A stretch of DNA of 64,000 bases from Candidatus Uhrbacteria bacterium CG_4_9_14_3_um_filter_41_35 (GCA_002791275.1 PFWT01000006.1:8831-72830); one strand, 5' to 3'. Shown: positions 4,482 to 56,283, numbered from the stretch's first letter. Translations and numbers: made by a program. The notes: a model not told the origin generated them from the letters alone.

Positions 4482-4520
4482 AATGGTGATAATATAACAA
4501 CTTTTAGCAAAATTTTCAAG

Positions 4521-16924: not shown

Positions 16925-18586
16925 TTAATCTTTACCCTCTTCCAGGGTAATCGCATTAATCGCGTCCGAGGTTCGGTTATAGATTTTTCCGTCAACTTGT
17001 TTTTGTTTATAAAAATCTTTTTTATAAATTAGTTTCTCAACCTCCTTGTTAATCCCTGAAAGCAAGATATGTTTGTTCTTATTTTTCTTTAAGGCGGAGA
17101 TGAATTCACCAAGATAATCTATACCGTCAATGTCAGCGTAAAATGAATATCTAAGTGAAACAATTACATAATTATTGTTACGAATTTTTTCGGCCGCCTC
17201 GAGGTGGGCCGGCATATTTATGTAAGTCATAGTTCCTGAAATTTTGTACACAACCACATCCGAATCTACCACTTCTTTTTTCAAAAATTCATTCTTCAGT
17301 AATGCTTCGGTTATGGCACCATTTTTCCAAAGCAAAACCTCAGTTTGACCGTACGAAAGCTTATTTACAAAAATTAGGAGCGCAATTACTGTACCAATCA
17401 AAATCCCGATAATCGGGTCCTCCACCACCACAATTATTGCCACAAAAAGTGAAAGCGCAAATGCAATTTTTTCGTTTTCGATAAGGTGGATGAAGTGTTT
17501 TTTTTCTACCATCCTGATCGCCACCACTACTAAAATTGAGGCAATCGCTACCATTGGTAGTAATTTGAAAAAATCGATAAAAAAGATCGCAATTACACCA
17601 ACCGCTATTGCGCTCACTAGTCCCGAGGATTTGTGTGTTGCGCCGCTTTTTATGTTTAACGCAGTTCTAGCTAGTGCCGCCGTGGCTGGAATTCCGCCCA
17701 TTAAACCCGAACCGATGTTAGCAATTGAAAGACCAAGGACTTCTTTGCGGTGATCAAATTTACTGTCGGTCATATTGTCCGCAATTTGCCCAGAAAGCAG
17801 GGTTTCAAGGATGGCAATAATTGCTGTCGCAATTGCCAACTGCCAGATTTCTTTGCTAAGCAAAATACTTAGGGAAAACTGCGCTAGTGGATTTTCAAAC
17901 AGTGTGGCGTGAATTGAAGGATATTTATCACCGAGCGTTAGAATAGCTGGTGTGTAACCAAGTGCTGGCAGTGCCAGCATAAGAGCGATCGATACAAAAG
18001 CGGCTATCGCAGAACCTGGGACTTTTGGAAATTTTTTATCCCAAACAATTATAAACATTGTGCAGAAAATAAAGATCAACAAAACTTGCCAGTTAGTTTT
18101 TTCTAAATTTTGTAAAAGTAGGTGAGTATTGCCAAGTACACTTTCGACTTTGTCTAAACCAGTTATCCCAAGGGCGTTGTCGAGCTGACCGAGGCCGATA
18201 ATAAAAGCCACCCCGAGCGTAAAACCGTGAACAATCGCCCGCGGGATGAAAATAATATATTTATCTAGATGAAAAATGTAAGCGATAAAAATTAGCAACC
18301 CAGAAAGCACCGCTACAACCGGGAGAACTTGGTAACCATTAATTAAAGCATAGGACCCTAAAATTCCCGACAGCGCCCCAGTTGGTCCGACAATGTTGTA
18401 ATTACTGCTTCCAACTACTGCCGCCAACAAACCCGCCCAAAATGCAGTAATAATCCCCTGAGTCGGCGTTGCGCCCGAAGTGATTGCAAGCGCCAGAGCC
18501 AGCGGGATACTAACAATACTCACAGTTAAGCCCGATTTCCAGTTCCGACCCACAGACTTTACCAAATCTAAAGTGTTAGAAAACAT
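16925..18586 (-). CDS. SulP family inorganic anion (sulfate) transporter with C-terminal STAS domain
   Basis: N-terminal SulP signature (GLTVSIVSIPLALALAITSGATPTQGIITAFWAGLLAAVVGSSNYNIVGPTGALS), multiple TM helices and a C-terminal STAS-like region; 553 aa. Confidence 0.85.
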   Translation of the reverse strand: MFSNTLDLVKSVGRNWKSGLTVSIVSIPLALALAITSGATPTQGIITAFWAGLLAAVVGSSNYNIVGPTGALSGILGSYALINGYQVLPVVAVLSGLLIFIAYIFHLDKYIIFIPRAIVHGFTLGVAFIIGLGQLDNALGITGLDKVESVLGNTHLLLQNLEKTNWQVLLIFIFCTMFIIVWDKKFPKVPGSAIAAFVSIALMLALPALGYTPAILTLGDKYPSIHATLFENPLAQFSLSILLSKEIWQLAIATAIIAILETLLSGQIADNMTDSKFDHRKEVLGLSIANIGSGLMGGIPATAALARTALNIKSGATHKSSGLVSAIAVGVIAIFFIDFFKLLPMVAIASILVVVAIRMVEKKHFIHLIENEKIAFALSLFVAIIVVVEDPIIGILIGTVIALLIFVNKLSYGQTEVLLWKNGAITEALLKNEFLKKEVVDSDVVVYKISGTMTYINMPAHLEAAEKIRNNNYVIVSLRYSFYADIDGIDYLGEFISALKKNKNKHILLSGINKEVEKLIYKKDFYKQKQVDGKIYNRTSDAINAITLEEGKD

Positions 18587-18697
18587 AAATGAAAATTTTG
18601 AATAGATGTTATTATTAAACCTACTAAGCTTAGAGTATTTTCATTATATAGTCAATTTATATTTTACTGGGATAAAAATTTGCATTATTTGTATTTT

Positions 18698-21600
18698 TTA
18701 TAGATTTTTAGCCGAAATATCGAAGAATCGTTCAAAGAAACTTGTTAGCTTATTTAAAACATTTTCTCGTTTTTTGCCATAACCGCCATCAGGAGAAAAA
18801 CGAGATGGGCGATTTATCATTATTTTACTAATTACAGTACCGGTTGTCGCTACATTTCCGTCTCTAAAAGCATTATTTATGAATTTGTAGGTAGCTTCTG
18901 GGTCAAGGTTTTCATTTTCAATTATTTTGTTGAGTTCTTCAATTTTCTTTTCTTCTACAAATTTTTGCCAATCTTCATCAATGATTGAATGAACATCAAG
19001 AGAAGTAATAAATTTATTGATAAGATCTTTTTTATTTCGGAGTTCAACACTAGAATCAATGGCTTTATTAATATCAACTAAAAGCTCTTTGTTTTTAGTA
19101 TGATCTTCATGATAGTGCTTAATAAGACCTAGAACATAATCAATATTAATTTCTACTTGTTTAATAAGCTCCATTTCAAAGACCACATCGTCATTAACAT
19201 TTTCTTTTTCTCCCTCTTCACCTTTACGAAATTCATTATATAAATCAATGTACATGCTATGGTAATCTTGCACATCACGCTCAGTCAAAATTTCATTTCC
19301 TGCAAATTCATCAAAAGTTGTAAGGATGTTTCGGACACGCAAAACCGCTCCGTATGATCTAATAAAATCTGTTTGAATCTGCTCTCCTACAATCCTTTCT
19401 CCTACCGGGAAATTTTCCAAAAGCTCATCAATCAAACTTTTGTATCCTCGGACTTCTTTATCGTCGTCTTTATAACCATTGTAATAGTCATTATAAGCTT
19501 TAAGAAGAACAATCCCACTGGCTTCCTTATCTCCAAAAAGTGCAATAGATTCGTTTGTCGCTTTTTCTAAATTGCGAAAACAAACAATATTTCCAAAGGT
19601 TTTTACACTATTCAAAATACGATTAGTTCTAGAAAATGCTTGAAGTAAACCATGCAAACGCAAGTTTTTATCTACCCAAATGGTATTCAGAGTTGTAGCA
19701 TCAAATCCAGTCAAAAACATGTTTACTACAATCAGAATATCAATTTCTCTATTTTTAACTCGCTCACTAACATCTTTGTAATAGTTTTGAAATTTATCTG
19801 ACGAAGTATCATAAGAAGTGCCAAACATTTTATTGTAATCACTAATGGCATTTTCAAGAAAATCTCGAGAACTAATATCAAGTCCGCTTGTATCTTCAGA
19901 ATTTTCATCAATCATTCCGTCCGCGTCTTCATCATTTACTCCAAAACTAAAAATTGTTGCTATTTTAAGTCGTTTATCGCTAGGTTCGTCGGCTAATTGT
20001 TTTTTAAATTCAAGATAATACTTTTTTGCCACATCAATAGAAGAAACGGCGAAAATTGAATTAAAGCCCGCTAGTCTGCGATCCTGTATTTTATAAAAAC
20101 TATTTCGTTTGGTTTTTTGGTCAAAGTGTTCCCGAATATATTTCACAATGTTTTCCAGTCGCTCCGGTGCTGAAAGAACAGCCTCGCGATCAATATCACG
20201 AACTTGAGCGTCTTCAATATTTTCCGCTTCATGAACGGTTGAAACATAATCAACTTTAAACGGTAAAACATTTTTGTCAGCAATAGCGTTAACAATTGTA
20301 TAGGTGTGAAGTTTCTCGCCAAAAGCCTGCTCGGTAGTTTTAAAATCAAGCCGACCACCAGATGAAGAATTTACAGCAAAAATAGGCGTGCCAGTAAAAC
20401 CAAATAAATGATATTTACTAAATGCTTTTACAATACTTGCATGCATATCGCCAAATTGCGAACGATGACATTCATCAAAAATTAAAACAATATGACCGTC
20501 AAAAATAGTATGATTTTTATTTTTACTTATAAATCTATCTAATTTTTGAATTGTGGTAACGATTATTCGAGAGTTTGAATCTTCTAACTGTTTTTTTAAT
20601 TTAGCTGTACTCGTATTACTGTTCGCCGCCCCTTTTTCAAATTTATCGTATTCTCGCATTGTTTGATAATCCAAGTCTTTACGATCAACTACAAACAATA
20701 CTTTGTCTATATACGGCAATTTACTAGCCAACTGAGCAGTCTTAAAACTTGTCAAAGTTTTTCCCGATCCGGTTGTATGCCAAACATAACCGCCAGCCTC
20801 AACTGTTCCGAGTTTTTTATAATTTGTACTAACCTCAACCCTGTTCAATATTCGTTCGGTCGCAACAATTTGATATGGCCTCATTACCAAAAGTTGCTTT
20901 TCGGTAGTAAATACGCAATATTTAGTTAGAATATTTAAAATCGTATGCTTAGCAAAAAATGTTTTGGCAAAATCCATTAAATCAGTAATCGGCCGATTGG
21001 TTGCGTCTGCCCACCAGCTCGTAAATTCAAAACTATTGCTCGATTTTTTTCCTTTTTTAATTTTACCCTCGCTTGATTCTTTTATGTGTTGAAATCTGGT
21101 TGTATTGCTGTAATATTTTGTATGAGTTCCGTTTGAGATGATAAATAACTGCACATATTCAAAAAGTCCGCTGGAAGCCCAAAAACTTTCTCGTTGATAA
21201 CGATTAATTTGATTAAATGCTTCGGAAATAGCAACTCCACGGCGTTTTAACTCAATATGAATAAGAGGTAGTCCATTCACAAGTACCGTCACATCATAAC
21301 GATTAGCCCGCTGTCCGTCTTCGGTCGTATATTGATTAATTACTTGCAGGCTATTATTATGGACATTTTTCTTATCTATCAAGTCTATATTTTTAAAAGT
21401 TCCGTCATCTCGGTCTAATATTTTCGTGCTGTCTTCTTGAATAGTAGTGGTTTTTTCTTCAATACTCTGATTTGGATTAGCGATAACACTCACAAAAAAC
21501 TTTTCCCATTCAGTATCTGAAAAAGTAAAATTATTTAATTTTTCCAGCTGCTGACGCAAGTTTAACACCAATTCATTTTCTGAAGTGATATTCAAATATT

Positions 21601-21754
21601 CATACGCTTGAGTTTCCAGTTGCTTAATAAAAGCACGCTCAAGCTCGGCCTCACTTTGGTAGTGAGCCACTCTTTTTTCATCAGACACATACTCGGAAAC
21701 AACCGTGCTTTGTGTGCTTTCAGCGACTAAATTGTATTTGTTCTTATTTGGCAT
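18698..21754 (-). CDS. hsdR: Type I restriction enzyme R subunit (HsdR), type IC (EcoR124I-like)
   Basis: 1018 aa with DEAD-box helicase motifs (GSGKTLTSFK; FVVDRKDLDYQT; DECHRSQFG) and the PD-(D/E)xK nuclease region (NRYDVTVLVNGLPLIHIELKRRG). Long colinear identity to EcoR124I HsdR as recalled from memory. 11-bp overlap with hsdS. Confidence 0.95.
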   Translation of the reverse strand: MPNKNKYNLVAESTQSTVVSEYVSDEKRVAHYQSEAELERAFIKQLETQAYEYLNITSENELVLNLRQQLEKLNNFTFSDTEWEKFFVSVIANPNQSIEEKTTTIQEDSTKILDRDDGTFKNIDLIDKKNVHNNSLQVINQYTTEDGQRANRYDVTVLVNGLPLIHIELKRRGVAISEAFNQINRYQRESFWASSGLFEYVQLFIISNGTHTKYYSNTTRFQHIKESSEGKIKKGKKSSNSFEFTSWWADATNRPITDLMDFAKTFFAKHTILNILTKYCVFTTEKQLLVMRPYQIVATERILNRVEVSTNYKKLGTVEAGGYVWHTTGSGKTLTSFKTAQLASKLPYIDKVLFVVDRKDLDYQTMREYDKFEKGAANSNTSTAKLKKQLEDSNSRIIVTTIQKLDRFISKNKNHTIFDGHIVLIFDECHRSQFGDMHASIVKAFSKYHLFGFTGTPIFAVNSSSGGRLDFKTTEQAFGEKLHTYTIVNAIADKNVLPFKVDYVSTVHEAENIEDAQVRDIDREAVLSAPERLENIVKYIREHFDQKTKRNSFYKIQDRRLAGFNSIFAVSSIDVAKKYYLEFKKQLADEPSDKRLKIATIFSFGVNDEDADGMIDENSEDTSGLDISSRDFLENAISDYNKMFGTSYDTSSDKFQNYYKDVSERVKNREIDILIVVNMFLTGFDATTLNTIWVDKNLRLHGLLQAFSRTNRILNSVKTFGNIVCFRNLEKATNESIALFGDKEASGIVLLKAYNDYYNGYKDDDKEVRGYKSLIDELLENFPVGERIVGEQIQTDFIRSYGAVLRVRNILTTFDEFAGNEILTERDVQDYHSMYIDLYNEFRKGEEGEKENVNDDVVFEMELIKQVEINIDYVLGLIKHYHEDHTKNKELLVDINKAIDSSVELRNKKDLINKFITSLDVHSIIDEDWQKFVEEKKIEELNKIIENENLDPEATYKFINNAFRDGNVATTGTVISKIMINRPSRFSPDGGYGKKRENVLNKLTSFFERFFDISAKNL

Positions 21755-22865
21755 ATTCTTTTTCTTTGAAAGTTAAAAGTTTCCCGCGGTAATATTCATA
21801 TTGCTGTCTGCGAGCTTTGAGTTCAGCGGGAAGACCGATTGAAATGTCATTTACAAGTGCATCAAATTTGTCGAGGATTGAAACTATTCTTTTTTGTTCG
21901 GTAAGTGGAGGTGTTGGGATTTTTATTTGATTTAAAATTGCCTGAGTTAAACTTGGACGTCCTGATCCTGTATCCAATTTCATTAAATCAACAGTTTTCA
22001 AATAGTGAAATAAAAACTTTGGAATAATTTTTTCTTCGTTTATTTCAGTATAATAAATAGTATCTACATTCCAAAACGGATCCTCTAAATAGTAAAGGTT
22101 TGTAATACTTCCTTTTCTTGGAATTAAAACAGTAGGCTTATCGTAGACCGATTTATTTACATAACCCATAACCCCTCCTGTGCCATAAACAGGAATTTTA
22201 CCATTTCCTAACTTCTTCCAGTCTTTTCCATTCTTAATCTTTGCAACACCTTGTAGTAAATCCCATTTTGAATTCGCATCAAAAGTCAACAACTCATTGC
22301 GATAATGCTCATACTGCTTTTTTCTTGCTTCCAGTTCTGCTTCCAGTTCTGCTTCCAGTTCTGCTTCCAGTTCTGTAAAACTATTAAGAATTTTAACAAT
22401 TTCTTCTTGGATGGCAAGAGGTGGGATGGGGATTAAAGTTTTTTTCAGAAAACTAAAGTGTCTTGTGTATTTACCTGTTTTTGAATAAAAATTATTTAAA
22501 GCATAGTAAAAATATTTTATATTTAATATATTTGAATTTGTTTTTAGAATTTTAATACCGTCCGCCCCTTGAGCAAAAGAAAAATCAATATATTTTAGTG
22601 CCTCAGTGTGGTCTCCGAAAATAACATATAAATCTTTAGCCATAACTGCAGCATTATCATCAGTATAGCCAACAATAAAATCTTGTCCTTGATCTATGAT
22701 AGGAAATTCACCTATTTCCTTGTAGTATTTTTTTGTAAGCTTTTTAGGAGGAGCACAGGTTGTTACGATTTTATTTATAAGCAAATTATCAATATCAAAA
22801 AACTCCACACCTGCTGGGCATAGTTCTGAGATTAGTTTTTCGATTTTTGGTTGGTTGGTTGTCAT
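21744..22865 (-). CDS. hsdS: Type I restriction-modification specificity subunit (HsdS), type IC-like with (ELEA)4 central repeat
   Basis: Two target-recognition halves, each ending in a conserved coiled-coil (ELEARKKQYEHYRNELLTF and ELKARRQQYEYYRGKLLTF). A central tandem 4-aa repeat TELEAELEAELEAELEA is encoded by a 12-bp DNA repeat. 373 aa. Confidence 0.85.
   Translation of the reverse strand: MTTNQPKIEKLISELCPAGVEFFDIDNLLINKIVTTCAPPKKLTKKYYKEIGEFPIIDQGQDFIVGYTDDNAAVMAKDLYVIFGDHTEALKYIDFSFAQGADGIKILKTNSNILNIKYFYYALNNFYSKTGKYTRHFSFLKKTLIPIPPLAIQEEIVKILNSFTELEAELEAELEAELEARKKQYEHYRNELLTFDANSKWDLLQGVAKIKNGKDWKKLGNGKIPVYGTGGVMGYVNKSVYDKPTVLIPRKGSITNLYYLEDPFWNVDTIYYTEINEEKIIPKFLFHYLKTVDLMKLDTGSGRPSLTQAILNQIKIPTPPLTEQKRIVSILDKFDALVNDISIGLPAELKARRQQYEYYRGKLLTFKEKEYAK
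22321..22385 (-). repeat. 12-bp tandem repeat (ttccagttctgc)x4 plus a degenerate fifth unit inside hsdS; encodes ELEA repeats in the central spacer-length-determining region
   Basis: Direct reading: cttgc TTCCAGTTCTGC x4 TTCCAGTTCTGT. Confidence 0.9.
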
Positions 22866-24328
22866 ACTAATAATGGAATTAAAGATTCAATGGAAGTTTT
22901 AAGTTCTTCATCTGTAAATTTTGTATTATTTGGATTTTCGGGGTGGTGAATTATATTTCTAATTTTAGTGGGTAAGGTAGTATTGTATTCAATAACGGTT
23001 TTGTCTGACTTTAAATGTTTATACTTTTTGTCTATTTTAATAGCTTCACCACTTTTATTAAAAAGATATTTATCAAAATCTTCTGATTTACAATATTTCT
23101 CGTCTTCTAAAATAGCTTTTGCTTGAATAAAACCATAAAGCTCGTTGTGAAATTCAACAGATAAAACGCCAAACGCATAATAATTAATTTCCCCCCAAGA
23201 AGGACTTGAGGATCCAAACAAATCGAATTCATTGCCAGCTTCAACTTTGTTCATTCCTGAATCTTTTGAGAATATATTCATTGAATGGGTTTCTTTTTTA
23301 TATTTTTTCAATAAATATGGTGAGTGAGTAATTATAAAAATTTGTGACTTGTCGGATATTTTTTCAAGGGCGTCAAGAAGTTTGTTTTGAGCTTGCGGAT
23401 GTAAAAAAGTTTCTGGCTCATCAATAAAAAATAGTATTGGTTTAGAAATTCCGTTTTCATCTGATGAAGAAATATCAGCATACACTTGAATAAGTGCTAA
23501 TGCTAAGGCTCGTTGCATTCCTGTACCTTTTTCAGAACTTTTTGTTTCAATGCCATTTTCAGATAGAGCAATATTCCCCGTTTTGAAAAAACTCTCAATT
23601 TCAGGTAATAAAAAACTAAATCTTACTTCTGTTTCTCCGTACTGTTCAGACAAAATACTTTGTATTTTTTGTTCAACTGGTTGTAGCGTTTTAGCTAAAC
23701 TATTTTCGCCCTCTCCAAAAGTTTCTTTATGAGAATTTTGAAAATTTCTCCAAGTATCAGAAGTAATAAAATCTTTTGTTATCGTATTTATAATTTTTCC
23801 GCTAATTTTTGTTTTTGAAAAATCAGAAATATCACCAGAATTTGTATCAGCCCAAACAAACTGTGCATCAAAAAGTGCCGTAATTGTATTATCTATTCCT
23901 GTAGGATTCTCAAATTGGTTTGCAGTTGGATTAAACACACGAACATTTTTAATATCAAGCTTCTTTTTCTTTCCGTCTTGTGTAATTTCTTTTTCTTCGC
24001 TAGAACGCATTATGCGTAAACTTTTTTCACCATTAGTATCAATGAGGGAAGATTTATATTTTTTTAAGGCATCTATTTCAACAATAGATTCAATATCCTC
24101 ACCTTTGAATTCAATTTCAATAGAAACAAAACTATCTGTTTCAATTTCTGTCTTAGTGATGACTTCACTTCTATCCTTTTTTGAGCGTATAAAGTCAATA
24201 GCTTCAAAAACTGATGATTTGCCACAATTATTGTCACCAACAAAAAAATTCACGCCTTTGTCAAAAAGAATTTCGTGATCACCTTTAAAGCCTTTAAAAT
24301 TATGGAGTTTTATTTTTGATATATACAT
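22862..24328 (-). CDS. ABC-type ATPase fused to a C-terminal HEPN-like (Rx4H) domain; PrrC/RloC-like putative anticodon nuclease / restriction-linked abortive-infection protein
   Basis: Walker A FVGDNNCGKSS, ABC-signature-like SEKGTGMQRA, Walker B PILFFIDEPETFLH and H-loop IITHSP. The ~145-aa C-terminal domain carries KIRNIIHHPENPN (R-x4-H). 4-bp overlap with the hsdS start. 488 aa. Confidence 0.55.
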   Translation of the reverse strand: MYISKIKLHNFKGFKGDHEILFDKGVNFFVGDNNCGKSSVFEAIDFIRSKKDRSEVITKTEIETDSFVSIEIEFKGEDIESIVEIDALKKYKSSLIDTNGEKSLRIMRSSEEKEITQDGKKKKLDIKNVRVFNPTANQFENPTGIDNTITALFDAQFVWADTNSGDISDFSKTKISGKIINTITKDFITSDTWRNFQNSHKETFGEGENSLAKTLQPVEQKIQSILSEQYGETEVRFSFLLPEIESFFKTGNIALSENGIETKSSEKGTGMQRALALALIQVYADISSSDENGISKPILFFIDEPETFLHPQAQNKLLDALEKISDKSQIFIITHSPYLLKKYKKETHSMNIFSKDSGMNKVEAGNEFDLFGSSSPSWGEINYYAFGVLSVEFHNELYGFIQAKAILEDEKYCKSEDFDKYLFNKSGEAIKIDKKYKHLKSDKTVIEYNTTLPTKIRNIIHHPENPNNTKFTDEELKTSIESLIPLLV

Positions 24329-24337
24329 AATTTTTAA

Positions 24338-24420
24338 TGATTTTTTTCAATATCCGCCATAATCTCATCAATCGCCGTCCTAAGCTCATTTTGCCCCACT
24401 GCAATTTTTAATTTCGCGTT
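24338..24420 (-). pseudogene. 3'-terminal remnant of an hsdM gene (encodes ...KIAVGQNELRTAIDEIMADIEKNH*); there is no start codon, and a stop lies a few codons upstream
   Basis: Nucleotide and peptide similarity to the 3' end of the intact hsdM at 25487.. (IVARQNELRNAIDEIVVDIEGTN*). It has the same spacing to the downstream gene start as hsdM has to dinD. Confidence 0.65.
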
Positions 24421-24628
24421 TGTTATATTATATTTCAGCCATTTTACAAGCTAACTGAATCTCTTCATCTTGGCTTTCTAACCACAGATCAACGTCTAAC
24501 TTATGTTCAGTTTTATTTTGGCTAATCATCTCCAATACAGGTTTTTTGTATTTAGATCAATAAATTTGGCACCATTATTGTCCTCAAAGAATTTTAATAC
24601 GTTTTCTACATTTATTGGATTTTTCATA

Positions 24629-25477
24629 TTATCCTTCATTATCCTTTAAAAATTTTTTATCATCATTCCCAAGATAGTTTTTCTCACTAATTACACTTCT
24701 ACCAAGCTCTTTTTCAGTTTCCTTCCTCGCGTTGCCTGCCACCTTACCACCTCTTTTGGCTACTCTTTTACTTTCAGTAATTCCTTTTGGTTTTTCTTGA
24801 CTCGATATTTCCGTGGTAACTTTTTCGCCAAGCATTGTAAAAATAAGCTCGAGATCCGTCATATTGTCTCTAAGATTTGCCTTAGATTTATCGGGAATAT
24901 TTTTGAGCTTCATATATTCGCTCGGCGTCATTCCAAAAGTCGCTTTGCTGATTTCTGCGGTCAAAATAGCATAGTCTCTTTGCTCTGTGATTCCTCTCTG
25001 TTTCCATTCATCCGTTAAATTTTGACGGATAGCAATTCCACGAAGTCTTTTGTCTATCCAATCTTGAGGATAGCCCTTTGCTTCATAGAGCTTTTTCATT
25101 CTTTCTTGGGCCAGTTCTGGATTTTCTATTTCCTCGATTCTTTCATAACCCACTTTGGCAAGCCACCTTTTGAAAGGTTCAGCTTTTGGAGAAGGGATGG
25201 ACTGGATAATTCTTAAAATCCCTTCAGTATTTGCACAATCTGTTTCTCTCATTTTTCCGTCTGGTGCAAGGAGTTTCAACCCGTGACAAAATGTCACGAC
25301 TTCACTTCCTTCTTCATTAAGTCTCTGTTTTAATTTTCTCCAATAAGCTCCCGCATCAGGACTTTCTGTAAGAGCAAAACATATATCAACGACCGAAAAA
25401 TACCATTCTTCATTATGCCAAATTTTACGAATTTGTTTTTTTTCAAACAGTGCGATTTTGTTGTGAGTATTTGCCAT
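24629..25477 (-). CDS. DinD-like / Bro-N domain protein (DNA-damage-inducible protein D family)
   Basis: N-terminal Bro-N-like segment (KIALFEKKQIRKIWHNEEWYFSVVDICFAL). The C-terminal region (KSKANLRDNMTDLELIFTMLGEKVTTEI; basic tail KRVAKRGGKVAGNARKE) resembles E. coli DinD as recalled from memory. 282 aa, 9 bp downstream of hsdM. Confidence 0.6.
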   Translation of the reverse strand: MANTHNKIALFEKKQIRKIWHNEEWYFSVVDICFALTESPDAGAYWRKLKQRLNEEGSEVVTFCHGLKLLAPDGKMRETDCANTEGILRIIQSIPSPKAEPFKRWLAKVGYERIEEIENPELAQERMKKLYEAKGYPQDWIDKRLRGIAIRQNLTDEWKQRGITEQRDYAILTAEISKATFGMTPSEYMKLKNIPDKSKANLRDNMTDLELIFTMLGEKVTTEISSQEKPKGITESKRVAKRGGKVAGNARKETEKELGRSVISEKNYLGNDDKKFLKDNEG

Positions 25478-25486
25478 ATTACTATT

Positions 25487-27064
25487 TTAGTTAGTTCCTT
25501 CAATATCCACCACAATCTCATCAATCGCATTTCGAAGCTCATTTTGCCTTGCGACAATTTGGGAAATTTTACTGTTAAGTTCTTTTATATCAATTATTTC
25601 GCGAGTATCTTCTGCTACTACATAACTTGATACTGCAATATTATAATCATTTTCGCTAATAGTTTTATTATCCACCAGTTTTGCAAAATACTCTGTGTCT
25701 TTACGCTCAATAAACGCATTAAGAATTTTTTTGCGATTTTCTTCACTTAATTTGTTTTTATTTCCACCTCGCACAAATTCTTTAGAAGCGTCTATAAACA
25801 AAGTCTTATTATCTTTTTTACTTTTTTTCAATATAACAACACAGGTTGCGATAGTTGTTCCGAAAAAGAGATCGGGCGGTAATTGTATAACTGAATCTAT
25901 GTAGTTATTATCAATCAAATATTTACGGATTTTTTGTTCAGCTCCACCACGATAAAGAACCCCCGGAAATTCAACAATTGCCGCGGTTCCGCTGGTTGAG
26001 AGCCAAGAAAGCATGTGCATGGTAAACGCTAGATCTGCCTTGCTTTTTGGTGCCAAAACTCCTGCGGGAGAAAAACGAGGATCATTTATTATTAAAGGAT
26101 TGGCATCGCCGTCCCACTTGATTGAATATGGCGGATTGGAAACAATGGCGTCAAAAGGTTCATCGTCCCAGTGTTTTGGATCAGTAAGAGTATCACCATG
26201 GGCAATATCAAAATTGTTATAATTGATATCATGCAAAAACATGTTTATACGGCAGAGGTTGTAGGTAGTGAGGTTTATTTCCTGTCCGTAGAAACCAAGA
26301 CGAACATTGTCTTTACCGAGCACTTTTGCAAATTTAAGAAGAAGTGAACCGGAACCGCAACAAGGATCATAAACTTTATTTACTTCTGTTTTACCAACGG
26401 TTGTAATTTCAGCCAAAAGTTCACTTACTTCTTGAGGGGTAAAAAATTCTCCTCCAGATTTACCAGCATTTGAAGCATACATGGTCATCAAAAATTCATA
26501 AGCATCACCGAAAGCGTCAATTGTGTTATCTCCATAATCACCCAAGCGAAGATCACCGATAGCTTCTAACAGTTTTACAAGTTTTTGATTTCTTTTCTCA
26601 ACTGTTCCGCCTAGCTTATTTGAGTTCACATCCAAGTCATCAAACAATCCTTTAAGATCGTCTTCGCTATCAAATCCTTTGGCAGAATTTTCGATATTAT
26701 CAAAAACCTTAGAAAGTGTTTCGTTAAGCTTTGCATCGCTACGGGCATTTTTATGAACATTTATAAAAAGTTCGCTCGGCAGAATATAAAAACCTTTATT
26801 AATTATTGTTTCTATTCTACCAAATTCCGCTTCTTTATCACTCAACTTAATATAATCAAATTGTTCTTGTCCGAAAACTCGCCTTTCATCTTCATTGATA
26901 AAGTTAGTTAGATTTTCGCTAATGAAACGATAAAAAAGCATTCCAAGAACATACTGTTTAAAATCCCAGCCGTCGACACTTCCTCGCAAGTCATTCGCAA
27001 TTTGCCAAATAGCACGATGTAACTCCGAGCGTTCTTGCTCTTTTGTTGTATTTAAATTTGTCAT
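25487..27064 (-). CDS. hsdM: Type I restriction-modification N6-adenine DNA methyltransferase (HsdM), type IC (EcoR124I-like)
   Basis: Motif I DPCCGSGSLLL and motif IV VSNPPYSIKW. N- and C-terminal regions colinear with EcoR124I HsdM (recalled). 525 aa. Confidence 0.95.
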   Translation of the reverse strand: MTNLNTTKEQERSELHRAIWQIANDLRGSVDGWDFKQYVLGMLFYRFISENLTNFINEDERRVFGQEQFDYIKLSDKEAEFGRIETIINKGFYILPSELFINVHKNARSDAKLNETLSKVFDNIENSAKGFDSEDDLKGLFDDLDVNSNKLGGTVEKRNQKLVKLLEAIGDLRLGDYGDNTIDAFGDAYEFLMTMYASNAGKSGGEFFTPQEVSELLAEITTVGKTEVNKVYDPCCGSGSLLLKFAKVLGKDNVRLGFYGQEINLTTYNLCRINMFLHDINYNNFDIAHGDTLTDPKHWDDEPFDAIVSNPPYSIKWDGDANPLIINDPRFSPAGVLAPKSKADLAFTMHMLSWLSTSGTAAIVEFPGVLYRGGAEQKIRKYLIDNNYIDSVIQLPPDLFFGTTIATCVVILKKSKKDNKTLFIDASKEFVRGGNKNKLSEENRKKILNAFIERKDTEYFAKLVDNKTISENDYNIAVSSYVVAEDTREIIDIKELNSKISQIVARQNELRNAIDEIVVDIEGTN

Positions 27065-27066
27065 AA

Positions 27067-27276
27067 TTATTTAATTAAATCATCTACACCAACACCAAAG
27101 GCATTAGCAATTTTGGTTAGCGTGTCGATAGTAGGATTCTTGTTTGCACCACTCTCAACAGTAACCACGGTATTTAAAGAAAGGTCCGCTAATTTTGAAA
27201 GGCGATCTTGCGAAATACTCTGTTCTACGCGCAATCGTTTAATGTTTTTTCCGATGTTATTTTTAAAATTTTGCAT
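27067..27276 (-). CDS. XRE-family helix-turn-helix transcriptional regulator (69 aa), 3 bp upstream of hsdM
   Basis: HTH_3 pattern IKRLRVEQSISQDRLSKLADLSLNTVVTVESG. Confidence 0.8.
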   Translation of the reverse strand: MQNFKNNIGKNIKRLRVEQSISQDRLSKLADLSLNTVVTVESGANKNPTIDTLTKIANAFGVGVDDLIK

Positions 27277-27385
27277 ACAATATAATGTATAGGTTTTGTT
27301 GAATAATATTACTTTAAATTCCTCCTGTCAAAAAAGTTGTTCCGCCAATAGGTGGAACTCCATATATTATCCTCATCAAAAAAGT

Positions 27386-27488
27386 GTTTCCGTGGTGGAG
27401 CGGAAAAAACCATTTTTCCCCTAATTAAAAGAAAAATAAATTTGAAAATTTGTTAAAACAAGTGGACGCTAGGCGCCACGGAAACTAA
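27386..27488. promoter_or_regulatory. Candidate operator/promoter region upstream of the XRE-hsdM operon, containing inverted repeats gtttccgtggtg / gccacggaaac about 88 bp apart and the near-palindrome gttccgccaataggtggaac (27331..27350)
   Basis: Inverted repeats read directly from the sequence; function inferred. Confidence 0.3.
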
Positions 27489-27548
27489 AAAGAATAGGGC
27501 GCAATGTGGCACGAAACATAACGAAGTAGCAACCCCTAATCACACGCT

Positions 27549-27815
27549 TTAATATGATTTGATCCGCTTTTTCCGTATAGGATAATAGACTACTCCAAAA
27601 ATAATAAACAAAACCCCACTCACAGCAGCAGCCCCTCCAACATATAGAAAAAAACTATCCTCCTCAAATAATTTAATAGCTGCAATGCCAAGAACAAATG
27701 CAGAAAAACCCGTTCTTACATACGCAAGTGTGTTGCGCTCATTGGCAAGAATAGTTCTTTCCTGAGCAAGAAGTTTGTGTGATTCAAACGATTTTTTTAA
27801 ATGATTATTTTCCAT
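27549..27815 (-). CDS. DUF202 (YidH-like) small membrane protein
   Basis: LANERNTLAYVRTG motif followed by two TM helices. The start was chosen at MENNHLKK (the ORF track extends to 27893). Confidence 0.6.
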   Translation of the reverse strand: MENNHLKKSFESHKLLAQERTILANERNTLAYVRTGFSAFVLGIAAIKLFEEDSFFLYVGGAAAVSGVLFIIFGVVYYPIRKKRIKSY

Positions 27816-28406
27816 AATGTTATTGTTTATTGTTTTCTTAATAAAGATTACTGGCAAAGTAGTCATCCTAATCGCGGCTAACACAGTAGCCATCCAACAC
27901 CTTCCGCAGTGAATCCCAAATGGTTCACCGATGATCCGATTTTAGCACAAGCAAAACGAGTGGAAATTTTGGATATGCAGTGCCAATGAACCTGAATTTT
28001 ATTTATTTTTTTGTATAAGGCTCAAACGTCATCCCTTAATTTTATAAAAAGCTTAATCGGATTCATCTGTGTTACTATTCCTTCCGAAATTTTAAAACTC
28101 AGAGATATTAATTGAACACATTATCAAGATCGTTAGATGTAATAAGCGTATCACCTTCAAAGCGGCTTAAATCACGTTTCAGTTCTACTTTTGTCTCCGG
28201 AAATTGCTAAACCGTCAATTATTAATGACCATAAACTGTATCGTTCCTTAATTAATTTAAAAGAGCACACTTGAAATAGTTATCTAAATTATACTACAAG
28301 TTTGCTCGATCTGAAATATAACCAATTAAATATGAGCAATGGAAATATTAAGCACCTGGGAGACGATGTTACGAGCTTAATAATTTTTGATTTTCAAATT
28401 TAACAA

Positions 28407-28435
28407 CAAAAATTCCCAGTAAACTGAGAATTTTT
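28407..28435 (-). terminator. Terminator hairpin immediately 3' of tRNA-Val(TAC)
   Basis: Minus strand reads AAATTCTCAGtttaCTGGGAATTTttg. Confidence 0.5.
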
Positions 28436-28436
28436 G

Positions 28437-28513
28437 TGGTGGGCGCTGAGGGACTCGAACCCCCGACCCTCTCGGTGTAAACGAGATGCTCTAGCCAGCT
28501 GAGCTAAGCGCCC
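28437..28513 (-). tRNA. tRNA-Val (anticodon TAC), CCA encoded
   Basis: Manual cloverleaf: GGGCGCT-TA-GCTC..GAGC-A-TCTCG-TTTACAC-CGAGA-GGGTC-GGGGG-TTCGAGT-CCCTC-AGCGCCC-A-CCA. Confidence 0.9.
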
Positions 28514-28531
28514 TTATTCATTTGTGAGAGA

Positions 28532-28560
28532 AATATAACATAGACCTAAATTTTTGACAA
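28532..28560 (-). promoter_or_regulatory. Sigma70-like promoter for tRNA-Val(TAC) (TTGTCA-17-TATATT on minus strand)
   Basis: Hexamers read from the reverse complement; divergent to the tRNA-Leu promoter. Confidence 0.45.
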
Positions 28561-28566
28561 GTGTTG

Positions 28567-28595
28567 TTGACAAGTCGCCATTTTCTAGTTATATT
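28567..28595 (+). promoter_or_regulatory. Near-consensus sigma70 promoter for tRNA-Leu (TTGACA-17-TATATT), 8 nt upstream of the tRNA 5' end
   Basis: ttgacaagtcgccattttctagttatatt read directly; a second TTGACA lies 12 bp upstream. Confidence 0.6.
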
Positions 28596-28603
28596 CGTTG
28601 CAC

Positions 28604-28691
28604 GCGCGGGTGGTGGAATTGGTAGACACGCAGGCTTGAGGGGCCTGTGCCTGTAATGGGCGTGGAAGTTCGAGTCTTCTCTCGCGCACCA
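28604..28691 (+). tRNA. tRNA-Leu (anticodon GAG), long variable arm, CCA encoded
   Basis: Manual fold colinear with E. coli tRNA-Leu: GCGCGGG-TG-GTGG-AATTGGTAGACAC-G-CAGGC-TTGAGGG-GCCTG-variable arm-GGAAG-TTCGAGT-CTTCT-CTCGCGC-A-CCA. The ORF 28589..28792(-) overlapping it is spurious. Confidence 0.9.
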
Positions 28692-28745: not shown

Positions 28746-29099
28746 TTATTCGTCATTTTTTTGTTTAAGGTCCGTCTTGCTCGGTAAATCAACCTGATCT
28801 TTGCGTACTAGCCAAATTAACAGCAAGTCAGCAATTACAGCACCCACTAAAAAGGAGCCAGTAGTAAAACCTAGAGCCATCAGCATATCCGTAACCGCGA
28901 TCGATATGACTAAATTTAAAGTACAGCTATTTCTTTGTATAGTCCCTATAATCGCAGCAAAATAAGCTACACCAACTAATATAAATACCACACCGGTAGG
29001 CTGAGGAATCAATGATATCGCACCAGAAACCTGAGCAACAGCTCGAAGTGCCAATATAAACACCAATACAATCCCGTAATTACTAATTTTATTTTTCAT
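28746..29099 (-). CDS. Small integral membrane protein (about 3 TM), hypothetical
   Basis: Hydrophobic profile only. The start was set at MKNKISNYG to avoid overlap with the upstream gene. Confidence 0.4.
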   Translation of the reverse strand: MKNKISNYGIVLVFILALRAVAQVSGAISLIPQPTGVVFILVGVAYFAAIIGTIQRNSCTLNLVISIAVTDMLMALGFTTGSFLVGAVIADLLLIWLVRKDQVDLPSKTDLKQKNDE

Positions 29100-29100
29100 A

Positions 29101-29847
29101 TTAAAACTTCCGCTCTTTACCAATAATTAATTTCAAATGGCTGGCTAAAACCGAAATTCTAAACTCTTTGCCTTCAAACTGTTCACCGTCTACTCGAATC
29201 CGAACCGTATTTTCGCCCGACATCGTGAGTTCTTTCACGGGCACAACCGTTGATTTAACTTTCTTTCGACTAAAGAGCGATCGATTCACGGTTCGAATTA
29301 CTAATTCAATTTTTCCGTCCGCCGGATTAGCTGCTGGAACAGTTTCATCTTCAATGGCCAGATTTCTAATTTCAATCGAGCATTTTTTAACCGGAAAGAC
29401 TTTAAACTTTCGACCGCAATCAATTTCCATACCCGCGCCATTGTCGATCATGCAGGAATTTATAAAACGATGACCGTTGATGACACCAGTATCAATTGCC
29501 TCAACCATTCGAGCAGAAATAACGTCGCAGGCAGCCACACCGTTTGGAATCCCCAGCATACTAGCAATAAAGTTTCCGTCTTTGCCAAGTGGAATAATCC
29601 CAAGAACCGAGCGGTGGTCAGCGGCAGCGTCGATAACTTTACGCAGGGTTAAATCATTACCCACGGCGATGATAGTTTTTGCCCCTTTCAGACTAGCGTC
29701 ACGAATAAGTTCCGAGGCGTCTCGAAAAAGAGCAAGACGGGCAATCTTGCCACTTATGCCAAGGTCAGTTAACCTTGTTTCAATATTCGCCAGCTCGCGT
29801 TCATACTTTGCGTCCTGTACGAATTCATCGTAAACGTAGTAGTACAT
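29101..29847 (-). CDS. Diacylglycerol-kinase catalytic-domain family lipid kinase (YegS/BmrU-like)
   Basis: DAGK_cat pattern TIIAVGNDLTLRKVIDAA .. LGIIPLGKDGNFIASMLGIP, then a beta-sandwich C-terminal part; 248 aa. Confidence 0.7.
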   Translation of the reverse strand: MYYYVYDEFVQDAKYERELANIETRLTDLGISGKIARLALFRDASELIRDASLKGAKTIIAVGNDLTLRKVIDAAADHRSVLGIIPLGKDGNFIASMLGIPNGVAACDVISARMVEAIDTGVINGHRFINSCMIDNGAGMEIDCGRKFKVFPVKKCSIEIRNLAIEDETVPAANPADGKIELVIRTVNRSLFSRKKVKSTVVPVKELTMSGENTVRIRVDGEQFEGKEFRISVLASHLKLIIGKERKF

Positions 29848-55856: not shown

Positions 55857-56277
55857 GCTTAGAAAATTGGATGATCACTTGAGTATTTATATTCGAGAGG
55901 AAAGTCCGGACACTCCTTATATGGCAACGTATATTGAAAACGAGCGTCGCTAACGGCGACCGGAATATGTATTGGGAATCAAGGAATTGGAGAATCTTTA
56001 AGTCTAACTTAATCATCCCCTGCCTCCTGATTAAATCTAGGGAAAGTGCCACAGAGACAATACTAGCCAAGCCTAGCTTGGTGAAAGGTGAAAAGTTTGG
56101 TGAGGTCGTTTACGGCTACACCGATCGCCCTGCGGTGACGCAGTGGTGTGGTAAACCCGCTTAGGTGCAAGAACAAATTTGGTAGTTTGCTAGAGATATT
56201 TGGCAACAAATATCGCAGATAGATGATCATCGTCCGGCTCCGCCGGATACAAAATCCGGCTTATAGATTTTCTAAGT
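55857..56277 (+). ncRNA. rnpB: RNase P RNA (bacterial type, rnpB)
   Basis: Universally conserved GAGGAAAGTCCGGAC (P4 5' strand) near the 5' end, GGTGAAA-GGTGAAA region and ACAAAATCCGGCTTAT (P4 3' strand). The P1 helix is formed by gcttagaaaat (55857-55867) and attttctaag (56265-56274). ORFs 55834..56070(-) and 55934..56164(+) in the track are spurious. Confidence 0.8.
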
Positions 56278-56283
56278 GCTAAA

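Follow-up and report, generated by a model that had tools for sequence, protein, structure and literature searches.

A probable horizontally acquired EcoR124-family type IC restriction-modification cassette with nested genes in Candidatus Uhrbacteria

The chromosome of Candidatus Uhrbacteria, a tiny-genome groundwater bacterium of the CPR, very probably carries an intact, horizontally acquired type IC restriction-modification (R-M) cassette of the EcoR124 family with additional genes nested within it. The locus is an ordinary, though well documented, instance of a known pattern: an acquired EcoR124-type system together with two nested candidate anti-virus genes.

Gene content and family placement

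Within the 64,000-nucleotide stretch of DNA that was analysed (the window), the cassette genes lie on the minus strand in the order XRE-hsdM-BroN-(scar)-ATPase-hsdS-hsdR, and beyond them come the DUF202 gene, non-coding DNA and, last, tRNA-Val(TAC). The features, by position in the window, are:

16925-18586, minus: SulP anion transporter, putative lineage-specific cargo at the same hotspot (from synteny with relatives)
18698-21754, minus: hsdR, type IC restriction/translocase subunit, 1018 aa (Pfam HSDR_N, SWI2_SNF2/ResIII, T1R_D3-like, EcoR124_C)
21744-22865, minus: hsdS, specificity subunit, 373 aa, two variable target-recognition domains (TRDs; Methylase_S x2)
22326-22375, no strand: perfect tandem repeat, 12 bp x 4.2 (TRF: period 12, 100% match), encoding (ELEA)x4 in the HsdS central coiled-coil
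22862-24328, minus: ABC-type ATPase, 488 aa, with an uncharacterised C-terminal domain (AAA_15/AAA_21/SMC_N)
22865-23245, minus: C-terminal orphan domain of the ATPase, 127 aa, candidate effector or sensor (AF2 pLDDT 90.7)
24329-24628, minus: non-coding "scar" between the ATPase and Bro-N genes
24329-24407, minus: hsdM remnant in the scar, covering the final ~23 codons of an older copy and its native 5-nt junction with the start codon of the ATPase gene
24408-24628, minus: decayed small-ORF fragments that probably arrived with the Bro-N gene (only 33-37-aa ORFs, two frames)
24629-25477, minus: Bro-N domain protein, 282 aa (Bro-N E 3.3e-13; PADLOC candidate PDC-S13 E 1.9e-123, full length)
25487-27064, minus: hsdM, type IC N6-adenine methyltransferase subunit, 525 aa (TIGR00497 hsdM E 7e-232)
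27067-27276, minus: XRE-family HTH protein, 69 aa (HTH_3 E 1.3e-11; PADLOC HTH_VI and Control_protein E 9e-10)
27303-27331, minus: promoter-like site upstream of the XRE gene, TTGACA-17-TATTAT (11/12 consensus positions; consensus match only)
27549-27893, minus: DUF202 small membrane protein, low-GC cargo at the island edge (PF02656 E 2.3e-11; GC 0.348)
27894-28395, no strand: AT-rich non-coding stretch (GC 0.32) holding the right edge of the acquired DNA
28406-28437, minus: tRNA-Val terminator hairpin, 14-bp stem followed by a T-run, native and not part of the island
28437-28513, minus: tRNA-Val(TAC) (ARAGORN, Rfam)
28604-28691, plus: tRNA-Leu(GAG), divergent partner of tRNA-Val (ARAGORN)

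The genes are tightly packed, with hsdS and hsdR overlapping by 11 nt, the ATPase gene and hsdS overlapping by 4 nt, and gaps of 2 and 9 nt. The catalytic motifs are all intact across the cassette. An earlier note on this DNA had described a complete type IC R-M locus of closely spaced or overlapping minus-strand genes in a CPR-like context, and this description holds: every gene is present where it was placed, the domains and motifs are intact, and the host is Candidatus Uhrbacteria, a CPR bacterium, the name under which public records list the exact proteins.

HsdR is colinear with EcoR124I HsdR (PDB 2w00, E 1.5e-252) at ~47% identity as counted from the HMMER alignment, and it retains the nuclease D..ExK, GSGKT, DECH and QAFSRTNR motifs. 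HsdM, in which DPCCGSG and NPPY are intact, matches EcoR124II HsdM (7bst_D, E 2.7e-186) at ~55% identity counted in the same way, and EcoKI HsdM scores only 54 bits against it. The conserved regions of HsdS match EcoR124II HsdS (7bst_A). The colinearity of HsdR with EcoR124I, described in the earlier note, is real, but the "high" similarity claimed there for HsdM and HsdR is moderate. Nor are enterobacterial plasmids the nearest kin: an E. coli plasmid HsdR is ~43% identical to that of the window, whereas HsdR proteins of other CPR cassettes reach 84-94%.

The cassette is predicted to be enzymatically active. From what is known of the family, an M2S complex would methylate a bipartite target, and an R2M2S complex would translocate along and cleave unmodified DNA. 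The four 12-bp ELEA repeats, which line up with the TAEL repeats in HsdS of EcoR124II, would set the spacing between the half-sites; the type IC gap-length mechanism is reviewed in PMC3874165. Three copies are found in related cassettes L067, L071 and L073, three in L066 (one imperfect) and four in L076, and unequal crossing-over at the repeats may alter specificity, as with TAEL x2/x3 in EcoR124I/II. At the DNA level, hsdS matches other cassettes only in its central region (22277-22443) and its 3' conserved region (to 21922), with no match to the TRDs among the compared cassettes. Two metagenome contigs (L005 and L006) terminate within the hsdS tandem repeat.

The XRE protein is probably the controller of the operon. 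In L073 and L075 hsdM is immediately preceded by a small HTH homolog, and in L066 one small gene intervenes between the two. Promoter-like sites across the region are no more numerous in total than in shuffled sequence.

Horizontal acquisition and the insertion site

Base composition sets the island apart from the core genes, with GC of 0.342 against 0.42±0.04 and GC3 of 0.26 against 0.38. Individual island genes range from 0.30 to 0.38 in GC and from 0.19 to 0.30 in GC3, and every one falls ~2 SD below the core in GC3. Six relatives without R-M genes keep the order ArgRS-bactofilin-DAGK-tRNAs-g16540-MT-..-NusA-YidC; in one of these comparisons (L042), where the R-M block is absent, ~50 bp separate the tRNA pair from the g16540 homolog, and in L036, L046 and L053 the corresponding site is occupied by unrelated cargo. 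In housekeeping proteins the syntenic relatives reach just 55-67% identity, and because the relatives are this distant, the absence of the block from them does not date its gain. The named homologs of HsdR at 84-94% identity all belong to CPR groups, among them Magasanikbacteria, Spechtbacterales, Pacebacteria, Moranbacteria and Parcubacteria, and their cassettes lie in unrelated genomic contexts. At the DNA level, hsdR is 91% identical to Magasanikbacteria locus L071 and hsdM is 89-93% identical to L071/L072. Horizontal acquisition, as put forward in the earlier note, is thus supported by composition, by synteny and by close HsdR relatives in other CPR lineages, and the donors appear to have been CPR bacteria rather than enterobacterial plasmids.

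Vertical inheritance within the Uhrbacteria lineage, with loss from the sampled relatives and a gene-specific bias accounting for the low GC, seems very improbable. The index of the collection lists the exact HsdR in 41 blocks, all 23 of the 23 contigs read carry it, the six contigs shown have it in the same context, and its nearest homologs are all from the CPR, as this explanation would have it. Nevertheless, HsdR is far better conserved across differently named CPR groups than are the housekeeping proteins of syntenic relatives, the homologous cassettes occupy unrelated contexts, GC3 is depressed in every island gene, and a mosaic of ~90% and 76% identical segments points to recent recombination between cassettes.

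The earlier note placed the DUF202 gene, then a gene-free stretch and then the 3' end of tRNA-Val(TAC) facing the island, and the coordinates (ARAGORN) confirm this; since the tRNA lies on the minus strand, its 3' end faces the island. The DUF202 gene, the start of which is at 27815 according to metagenome gene callers, is missing from the corresponding site in relatives. The stretch that follows (27894-28395) has no ORF longer than 34 aa, no Rfam match and no match to any compared locus. It is conceivable, though quite unlikely, that the block is a tRNA-targeted integrative island that entered site-specifically at the tRNA-Val 3' end, its integrase and att repeat having since decayed. The block abuts the 3' side of tRNA-Val, separated by ~500 bp of this AT-rich DNA, and integrative vehicles do exist, because similar cassettes in L067/L068 and L071 adjoin an inovirus-like block, with a large serine recombinase also present in L068. 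However, the tRNA-Val 3' 23-mer is not repeated anywhere in the whole 64 kb even when 3 mismatches are allowed, no direct repeat brackets the island, profile and ORF searches detected no integrase domain or remnant ORF, and neither mobile-element ends nor a target duplication was found. The terminator hairpin is intact and, together with tRNA-Val, is conserved in island-free L042 (window 28396-28518, 82%). In relatives the tRNA pair is flanked on either side by unrelated cargo, and although it still adjoins DAGK there, it is itself rearranged, being inverted or tandem in some. The earlier note was right that integrase and direct repeats are missing, but its suggestion of insertion at the tRNA 3' end is not borne out, and the site is instead a variable accessory-gene hotspot by the tRNA-Leu/tRNA-Val pair.

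Judged by synteny, the lineage-specific block is larger than the cassette, spanning ~16.8-28.4 kb with SulP included. In L036, L042, L043, L046, L049 and L053 the interval from the tRNA pair to the g16540 homolog contains no SulP gene, and the best homologs of SulP are at most 74% identical and scattered across CPR phyla without synteny. Because the composition of SulP is core-like (GC 0.41), the 11.6-kb block probably does not reflect a single event, and SulP is probably a separate, older gain.

The exchangeable slot and its nested genes

The junction between hsdM and hsdS is an exchangeable slot that holds different ABC-ATPase genes within near-identical CPR backbones. The 488-aa ATPase occupies it in L064, L066, L067, L075 and L076, and the Bro-N gene is missing from these otherwise homologous cassettes. 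Elsewhere the same backbone carries PDC-S46 (L071) or a 532-aa ATPase. The window is a mosaic in this respect: its hsdR and hsdM are ~90% DNA-identical to L071, the slot of which holds PDC-S46, whereas the ATPase block is 88-89% DNA-identical to L075/L076. Contiguous with that block is the scar, which contains one copy of a 76-nt direct repeat (24332-24407), the other being the 3' end of the present hsdM (25485-25560; 79% identity, blastn E 1.9e-14). The scar copy translates as IAVGQNELRTAIDEIMADIEKNH* and the corresponding end of the present hsdM as IVARQNELRNAIDEIVVDIEGTN*, and the segment 24329-24407 is the tail of an older hsdM. The remainder (24408-24628) has no match among the other compared loci. 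The Bro-N gene entered the slot by recombination, and we propose that it joined after the ATPase, which would have duplicated the hsdM 3' end and left the scar.

In the ATPase, Walker A, Walker B and the H-loop are intact, and the fold matches Rad50, SMC, GajA and PtuA. The PADLOC Old model aligns with just the ATPase portion (positions 2-346 of 578), and PADLOC v2.0.0 has no full-length model for the protein. There are at least 1105 homologs, the best 120 of which are 71-97% identical. The JGI annotation of the family reads "putative ATP-dependent endonuclease". The orphan domain has the invariant motifs WGEINY, EFHNELYGF and IRNxIHHPEN and is found in 507 representative clusters, nearly always at the C-terminus of 450-520-aa proteins. 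It has no match in Pfam, PADLOC, PDB sequence, PDB fold or BFVD, and the PDB-fold and BFVD comparisons revealed no recognisable nuclease fold. The HEPN label given to this region in the earlier note consequently finds no support in Pfam, PADLOC or PDB sequence and fold searches. A candidate catalytic His in the domain is not conserved among distant homologs, which, like the missing nuclease fold, counts against a defence role. Identification of the ATPase as PrrC was rejected, given that the PrrC and AAA_13 models are unmatched, no anticodon-nuclease domain is recognisable and a true PrrC coexists with it in L076.

The Bro-N protein had been called dinD-like. The Bro-N domain and a weak match to DinD (E 0.005) agree with that label, but the full-length match is instead to PDC-S13. 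The protein also matches a full-length phage family, phrog_15286 (E 5.8e-104). Occurrence of this family in phages counts against a defence role.

Genes embedded in type I R-M loci have been described as defence candidates (bioRxiv 10.1101/2024.01.29.577857). Our best guess from context is that the nested ATPase and Bro-N genes are modules of a second line of defence against phages, carried along with the R-M system. In this reading the ATPase would combine sensing and effector functions and be triggered by disturbance of the cell through infection or anti-restriction, by analogy with PrrC and OLD/Gabija, families of which it is not a member. A less likely, though possible, reading makes the ATPase a type IC accessory subunit or regulator (acting, for example, in assembly or in alleviating restriction), or else a DNA-repair factor of the RecF/SMC type, and the Bro-N protein a phage-derived regulatory remnant. 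Consistent with this, the ATPase is translationally coupled to hsdS by the 4-nt overlap and starts 4-6 nt after hsdM in relatives, identity is high among the homologs listed, the C-terminal domain lacks a nuclease-like fold match, and the Bro-N match is to a full-length phage family. However, other genes occupy the slot in the same backbone, EcoR124I does without a subunit of this kind (family knowledge; PMC3874165), and full-length homologs on Lactobacillus and Klebsiella plasmids are solitary, flanked by IS elements and without R-M genes. Because these homologs stand alone, coupling of the ATPase to R-M is not required.

It is also doubtful that the R-M system serves mainly for nucleotide scavenging from foreign DNA in a host-dependent, nucleotide-auxotrophic bacterium, or as a selfish addiction module, rather than in anti-phage defence. 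Scavenging has been raised for the CPR (PMC12455944) and the cassette behaves like a mobile unit; sequence does not separate these roles. The candidate defence genes that travel with the cassette, like PrrC in L076, are consistent with anti-phage defence.

Comparison with known systems

Among the closest known systems are EcoR124I/II, the plasmid-borne type IC systems of E. coli, with which the cassette shares a colinear HsdR with an EcoR124_C domain, an HsdM much nearer to EcoR124II than to EcoKI, the hsdM-hsdS-hsdR order and a 12-bp/4-aa repeat at the TAEL position of the HsdS central coiled-coil (PMC3874165). It differs in the limited identity of HsdR and HsdM, in having ELEA x4 rather than TAEL x2/x3, in its upstream XRE gene, in the two additional genes that separate hsdM from hsdS, and in its chromosomal location in a CPR bacterium.

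EcoprrI-PrrC of E. coli CT196 (prrA-prrB-prrC-prrD; reviewed in PMC3874165) is likewise a type IC operon with a nested ABC-type NTPase gene, and the proposed logic, a latent second-line effector travelling with R-M, would be the same. However, the window ATPase sits between hsdM and hsdS and not between hsdS and hsdR, and it differs from PrrC in its unmatched models and in having no recognisable anticodon-nuclease domain; the two occur together in L076. With the OLD nucleases, Gabija GajA, PARIS AriA and Septu PtuA it shares an N-terminal ABC ATPase in sequence and fold, but instead of Toprim or another known effector domain and a partner gene it has the 127-aa orphan domain.

Genes nested in type I R-M are exactly the pattern described by Payne et al. 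2024, among whose PADLOC PDC candidates the Bro-N gene (PDC-S13, full length) and the gene in the same slot of L071 (PDC-S46) are found, whereas for the 488-aa ATPase PADLOC v2.0.0 offers no model of full length. Finally, in the Patescibacteria MAG nzgw456 a "putative ATP-dependent endonuclease" is reported alongside type I R-M genes on a genomic island (PMC12455944). This is a different genome, likened to the window by description only, but it too is a CPR genome with a horizontally acquired full type I R-M system, and the endonuclease wording is the same as the JGI annotation of the window ATPase family.

The type IC operon

A co-directional cluster of genes on the minus strand is confirmed by the ORF listing and by profile searches, as the earlier note had claimed for XRE, hsdM, the ATPase, hsdS and hsdR near tRNA-Val.

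Features of the R-M locus (window positions)
28437-28513, minus strand, tRNA-Val(TAC), beyond the DUF202 gene and ~500 bp of AT-rich non-coding DNA
27549-27893, DUF202 gene, upstream of the R-M cluster
27067-27276, minus strand, XRE-HTH gene, 69 aa
25487-27064, minus strand, hsdM, 525 aa
24629-25477, minus strand, gene for the Bro-N protein, 282 aa
24329-24628, within the minus-strand cluster, non-coding scar, 300 bp
22862-24328, minus strand, gene for the ABC-type ATPase, 488 aa
21744-22865, minus strand, hsdS, 373 aa
18698-21754, minus strand, hsdR, 1018 aa

The cluster forms an intact type IC operon, in which the genes are translationally coupled. Catalytic motifs are intact in HsdR (D..ExK, GSGKT, DECH and QAFSRTNR), in HsdM (DPCCGSG and NPPY) and in the ATPase. 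HsdR carries the family-specific C-terminal domain EcoR124_C (PF12008; Pfam E 8e-64) and aligns colinearly with EcoR124I HsdR over residues 8-1015 (PDB 2w00_A, E 1.5e-252), while HsdM scores 623 bits against EcoR124II HsdM (7bst_D) versus 54 bits against EcoKI HsdM. Classically, type IC systems were defined by subunit complementation and by antibody cross-reactivity with EcoR124I (PMC3874165); judged by sequence, this R-M system is clearly a member of type IC, the EcoR124 family. The earlier claim that HsdM and HsdR are colinear with, and highly similar to, their EcoR124I counterparts thus stands for the colinearity of HsdR and for type IC, but not for the word "high", as identities counted from the HMMER alignments are ~47% for HsdR against EcoR124I and ~55% for HsdM against EcoR124II. 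From what is known of the family, M2S would methylate a bipartite target and R2M2S would restrict unmodified DNA.

In profile searches, the XRE-HTH protein matches HTH_3 and the PADLOC Control_protein model (E 9e-10), and by analogy with its family it would be the controller of the R-M operon. A small HTH gene keeps this upstream position in two of the fetched CPR loci with related type IC cassettes (L073 and L075) and nearly so in a third (L066). A likely promoter, a consensus match only, lies upstream of XRE. Between this promoter and the DUF202 gene, 27340-27480 holds three hairpins, of which two resemble each other and are followed by a T-run (TTCCGctccaccaCGGAA..CTTTTTTGA and GTTCCacctattggcGGAAC..CTTTTTTGA) and the third is GC-rich; they are probably a stack of terminators insulating the R-M operon. 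Elsewhere in the window, and unrelated to the cassette, is a bacterial RNase P RNA of class A (55859-56279; Rfam 166.6 bits).

A perfect in-frame tandem repeat within hsdS (22326-22375; 12 bp x 4.2, 100% match) encodes ELEA x4 in the central conserved (D1) helix, which aligns to the TAEL region of 7bst_A; EcoR124I and EcoR124II carry TAEL x2 and x3, respectively, at exactly this place. In type IC systems the HsdS repeat sets the gap between the half-sites and is altered by unequal crossing-over (PMC3874165). Among related CPR cassettes, L076 has four copies, and L066, L067, L071 and L073 have three, one of those in L066 being imperfect. If the family rule holds, ELEA copy number would fix the spacer, and four copies predict 1 bp more than in the three-copy relatives. 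Two independent metagenome contigs of the window strain (L005 and L006) end inside the repeat, at 22363-22375, which hints at, and is not proof of, variation within populations in repeat number or in the upstream TRD. A search among HsdS homologs for strains that differ in repeat number only returned no near-identical proteins. The exact HsdS protein is missing from a 15-billion-protein collection that does contain all other island proteins for which a look-up was made, and that indexes contigs of identical DNA; its absence is probably a database artefact.

Horizontal origin and the insertion site

The CPR-like context proposed for the locus is real, because the exact window proteins are deposited under Candidatus Uhrbacteria bacterium CG_4_9_14_3_um_filter_41_35 and CG_4_10_14_0_2_um_filter_41_7. 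Every island gene is lower in GC (0.30-0.38) and in GC3 (0.19-0.30) than the 41 other long ORFs in the window (0.42+-0.04 and 0.38+-0.06, respectively). A DAGK-based metagenome scan found relatives with a long syntenic backbone, in the order ArgRS-bactofilin-DAGK-[tRNA-Leu/tRNA-Val]-g16540-methyltransferase-g15551-...-NusA-YidC (g16540 and g15551 being window backbone genes), and with housekeeping identity of 55-67%. None of these syntenic relatives has R-M genes, DUF202 or SulP at the window position. In one of them, L042 from a 653-kb contig, only ~50 bp separate the tRNA pair from the g16540 homolog, and three others (L036, L046 and L053) carry unrelated cargo at the island site, namely GNAT/HAD genes, an MFS transporter and ferredoxin/Kazal genes. 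The synteny comparison supports acquisition by horizontal transfer; absence from the site in relatives, together with atypical composition, is a trait common to any horizontally acquired hotspot cargo.

The best 120 HsdR homologs are 84-94% identical, and all of those with an informative organism name are CPR, including Magasanikbacteria (94%), Spechtbacterales, Pacebacteria, Moranbacteria and Parcubacteria. The fetched related cassettes occupy unrelated neighbourhoods, and the best plasmid matches to HsdR are lower, at 59-66% identity in Actinobacteria and Fusobacterium and ~43% on E. coli plasmids. Therefore, the cassette is mobile and circulates within CPR.

Directly beside the type IC cassette, three other CPR contigs carry an inovirus-like block (L067 1747-8287, L068 128-8287 and L071 1-4886) composed of Zot and several small ORFs, with a REP_ORF2-G2P rolling-circle Rep in L067 and L068. 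In addition, a 538-aa large serine recombinase is encoded in L068 and a LexA/S24-like repressor in L071. The cassette may travel with this block as its vehicle; the window contains nothing similar. A DUF2130 gene (426-428 aa) that follows hsdR in L067 (15721-17001), L071 (13072-14355) and L073 (13073-14359) is absent from the window cassette; no PADLOC model matches it, and it may be one more accessory gene of the mobile unit. In L075 the cassette belongs to a small defence island, with a 1006-aa GmrSD_N/DUF4357 protein (17198-20218; type IV restriction-like) encoded 1.5 kb downstream of hsdR.

The earlier note had suggested possible insertion at the 3' end of tRNA-Val, in the manner of a tRNA-targeted integrative genomic island, while reporting no integrase or direct repeat. 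That absence holds: the profile search of ORFs found no integrase domain, the 3' 23-mer of tRNA-Val has no second copy at <=3 mismatches, and a general repeat scan found no direct repeat bracketing the island. The terminator hairpin just after tRNA-Val (28406-28437) is native, because it is conserved in the island-free L042. With no integrase, no tRNA 3' repeat at the far boundary, no bracketing repeat and the native terminator kept in place, insertion at the tRNA 3' end is not supported. The gene-free stretch at 27894-28395 has no ORF >34 aa, no Rfam family and no match elsewhere. DNA homology to other cassettes extends from 18684, which lies 14 nt beyond the hsdR stop, to within or just past the start of XRE/hsdM (27073-27138), and this comparison found no common mobile-element ends at the cassette borders. 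A 19-nt imperfect inverted repeat near the island ends (18654-18672 and 28414-28432, 79% complementary) was dropped because such a match is expected by chance in a 14-kb AT-rich region.

An accessory-gene hotspot next to a tRNA pair is the best description of the site. The pair, tRNA-Leu(GAG) and tRNA-Val(TAC), lies by DAGK (28437-28691). Its two genes are divergent in the window and in the relatives L033 and L036; in L040, L042, L043 and L046 the pair is inverted as a whole, and in L047-L055 the two genes are in tandem, 1 nt apart. The region is a hotspot of local rearrangement. Across the pair from the island, between DAGK and tRNA-Leu, a small ORF (28746-29123; 125 aa in the ORF listing, 117 aa from gene callers) is lineage-specific cargo, without a Pfam match and without a homolog in any of the syntenic relatives. 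By synteny, the lineage-specific block on the island side also takes in SulP (16925-18586). SulP is probably a separate gain, because its composition is core-like and its homologs, <=74% identical, are scattered over CPR phyla without synteny; a search of reference genomes with SulP found no shared neighbours and no island-free close relative.

The mosaic cassette and its nested genes

The cassette is a mosaic. The hsdR gene and the 3' part of hsdS (18684-21922) share 91% DNA identity with the Magasanikbacteria locus L071, and hsdM (25499-27073) shares 89-93% with L071 and L072. The block between them (22800-24406), made up of the hsdS 5' end, the ATPase and the scar, is 88-89% identical to L075 and L076 and lacks an equivalent in L071. 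Within the scar, 76 nt duplicate the 3' terminus of hsdM as it now stands (24332-24407 versus 25485-25560; 79% identity, blastn E 1.9e-14); their translation ends in IAVGQNELRTAIDEIMADIEKNH and a stop, with the ATPase ATG five nt later. Loci in which hsdM lies immediately before the ATPase have the same junction, and the order hsdM-ATPase-hsdS-hsdR without a Bro-N gene is found in L064, L066, L067, L075 and L076. In the window, the Bro-N gene, carrying its own hsdM tail, recombined in upstream of the resident ATPase.

The contents of the hsdM|hsdS junction differ between related backbones: L071 has a 733-aa protein of the PADLOC phage-defence candidate (PDC) family PDC-S46, L073, with HsdR 91% identical, has a 532-aa AAA_15 protein with the same C-terminal domain as the window ATPase, and L076 has the 488-aa ATPase there and a bona fide PrrC (4377-5468; PADLOC E 1.5e-101) in hsdS|hsdR. 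These differences, taken with the DNA mosaic, mean that the hsdM|hsdS junction is an exchangeable slot. L076 is also one CPR type IC operon with two nested modules.

The Bro-N gene nested in the window operon had been called dinD-like. Its similarity to DinD is weak, and the full-length match is instead to PDC-S13 (E 1.9e-123; residues 4-273 on model positions 3-271 of 286); the phage family phrog_15286 also matches over the full length. The PDC families, which are still candidates, were derived from genes found inside BREX, DISARM and type I R-M systems (bioRxiv 10.1101/2024.01.29.577857). A search of literature and supplements for PDC-S13 returned no matches.

The N-terminal 350 residues of the second nested protein are an ABC ATPase of the Rad50/SMC/OLD/GajA/PtuA kind. 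In the full-length AF2 model this part is poor (pLDDT 60), and fold matches only restate "ABC ATPase". The C-terminal 127 residues are modelled confidently (pLDDT 90.7) as helices and a beta-hairpin, with many invariant polar residues and the invariant motifs WGEINY, EFHNELYGF and IRNxIHHPEN. Among 507 representative clusters with this domain, nearly all have it C-terminal to the same ATPase. The domain has no match in Pfam or PADLOC (E up to 10 in each), in PHROGs, in a PDB profile search, or, using the confident domain model, in Foldseek searches of PDB and BFVD.

Three known families were weighed for this protein. As a PrrC anticodon nuclease it fails on the absence of an AAA_13 match and of PrrC from the best 25 PADLOC matches listed for the whole protein, the real PrrC in L076 scoring E 1.5e-101 for comparison; like prrC, the ATPase gene is nested in a type IC hsd operon, but in a different slot, between hsdM and hsdS in the window and in five other loci. 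As an OLD-family nuclease it has the ATPase part but covers only positions 2-346 of the 578-position Old model, with no Toprim or any other Pfam match in residues 354-488. The HEPN assignment of the earlier note rests on the motif RNIIHH, that is R457-N458-x-x-H461-H462, which was compared with the Rx4-6H motif of HEPN domains and is invariant in close homologs. It is not firmly conserved, because distant homologs have RNCIHY (L073) or RNEIDH (pLH1), neither His being universal. The best PDB Foldseek match has E 1.6, with no HEPN in the top 50, and profile searches are negative; Foldseek is weak on small helical domains, and the exclusion of a HEPN fold is not strong. On this evidence the HEPN label lacks support.

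The ATPase family is widespread in CPR and is also found alone on Firmicute and Klebsiella plasmids. On Lactobacillus and Klebsiella plasmids, full-length homologs (35-40% identical) are solitary genes flanked by IS elements, which argues that the ATPase is an autonomous module. From their context, the two nested genes would be co-transferred second-line defences, and the ATPase would act like PrrC or OLD-type sensors while belonging to neither family. A bolder proposal, which we put forward tentatively and consider rather unlikely as a whole, is that the 488-aa ATPase is the first representative of a new family of effectors in the hsdM|hsdS slot, an infection- or anti-restriction-triggered toxin with a new catalytic fold, and that the hsdM-tail-flanked slot is a recombination "socket" for swapping modules.

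Significance and precedents

Bacteria such as the host have very small genomes and few CRISPR systems, and the locus is a clean, well-bounded case of small-genome bacteria obtaining and remodelling their defences. A type IC cassette is shared across CPR lineages at 84-94% protein identity, its specificity predicted to be resettable by TRD exchange and the 12-bp repeat, with an internal slot that swaps putative second-line modules by recombination. The locus mainly adds a documented case, because every principle seen here is already published; only the orphan domain at the C-terminus of the 488-aa ATPase family is still unexplored, and that family is singled out as the one uncharacterised protein family worth testing. 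Gap-length switching and PrrC in type IC systems are reviewed in PMC3874165, and embedded defence candidates have been described through guilt-by-embedding (Payne et al. 2024, bioRxiv 10.1101/2024.01.29.577857). The genomic island reported from a Patescibacteria MAG (PMC12455944) holds a complete type I R-M system and a "putative ATP-dependent endonuclease", the same wording that the JGI annotation uses for the family of the window ATPase.
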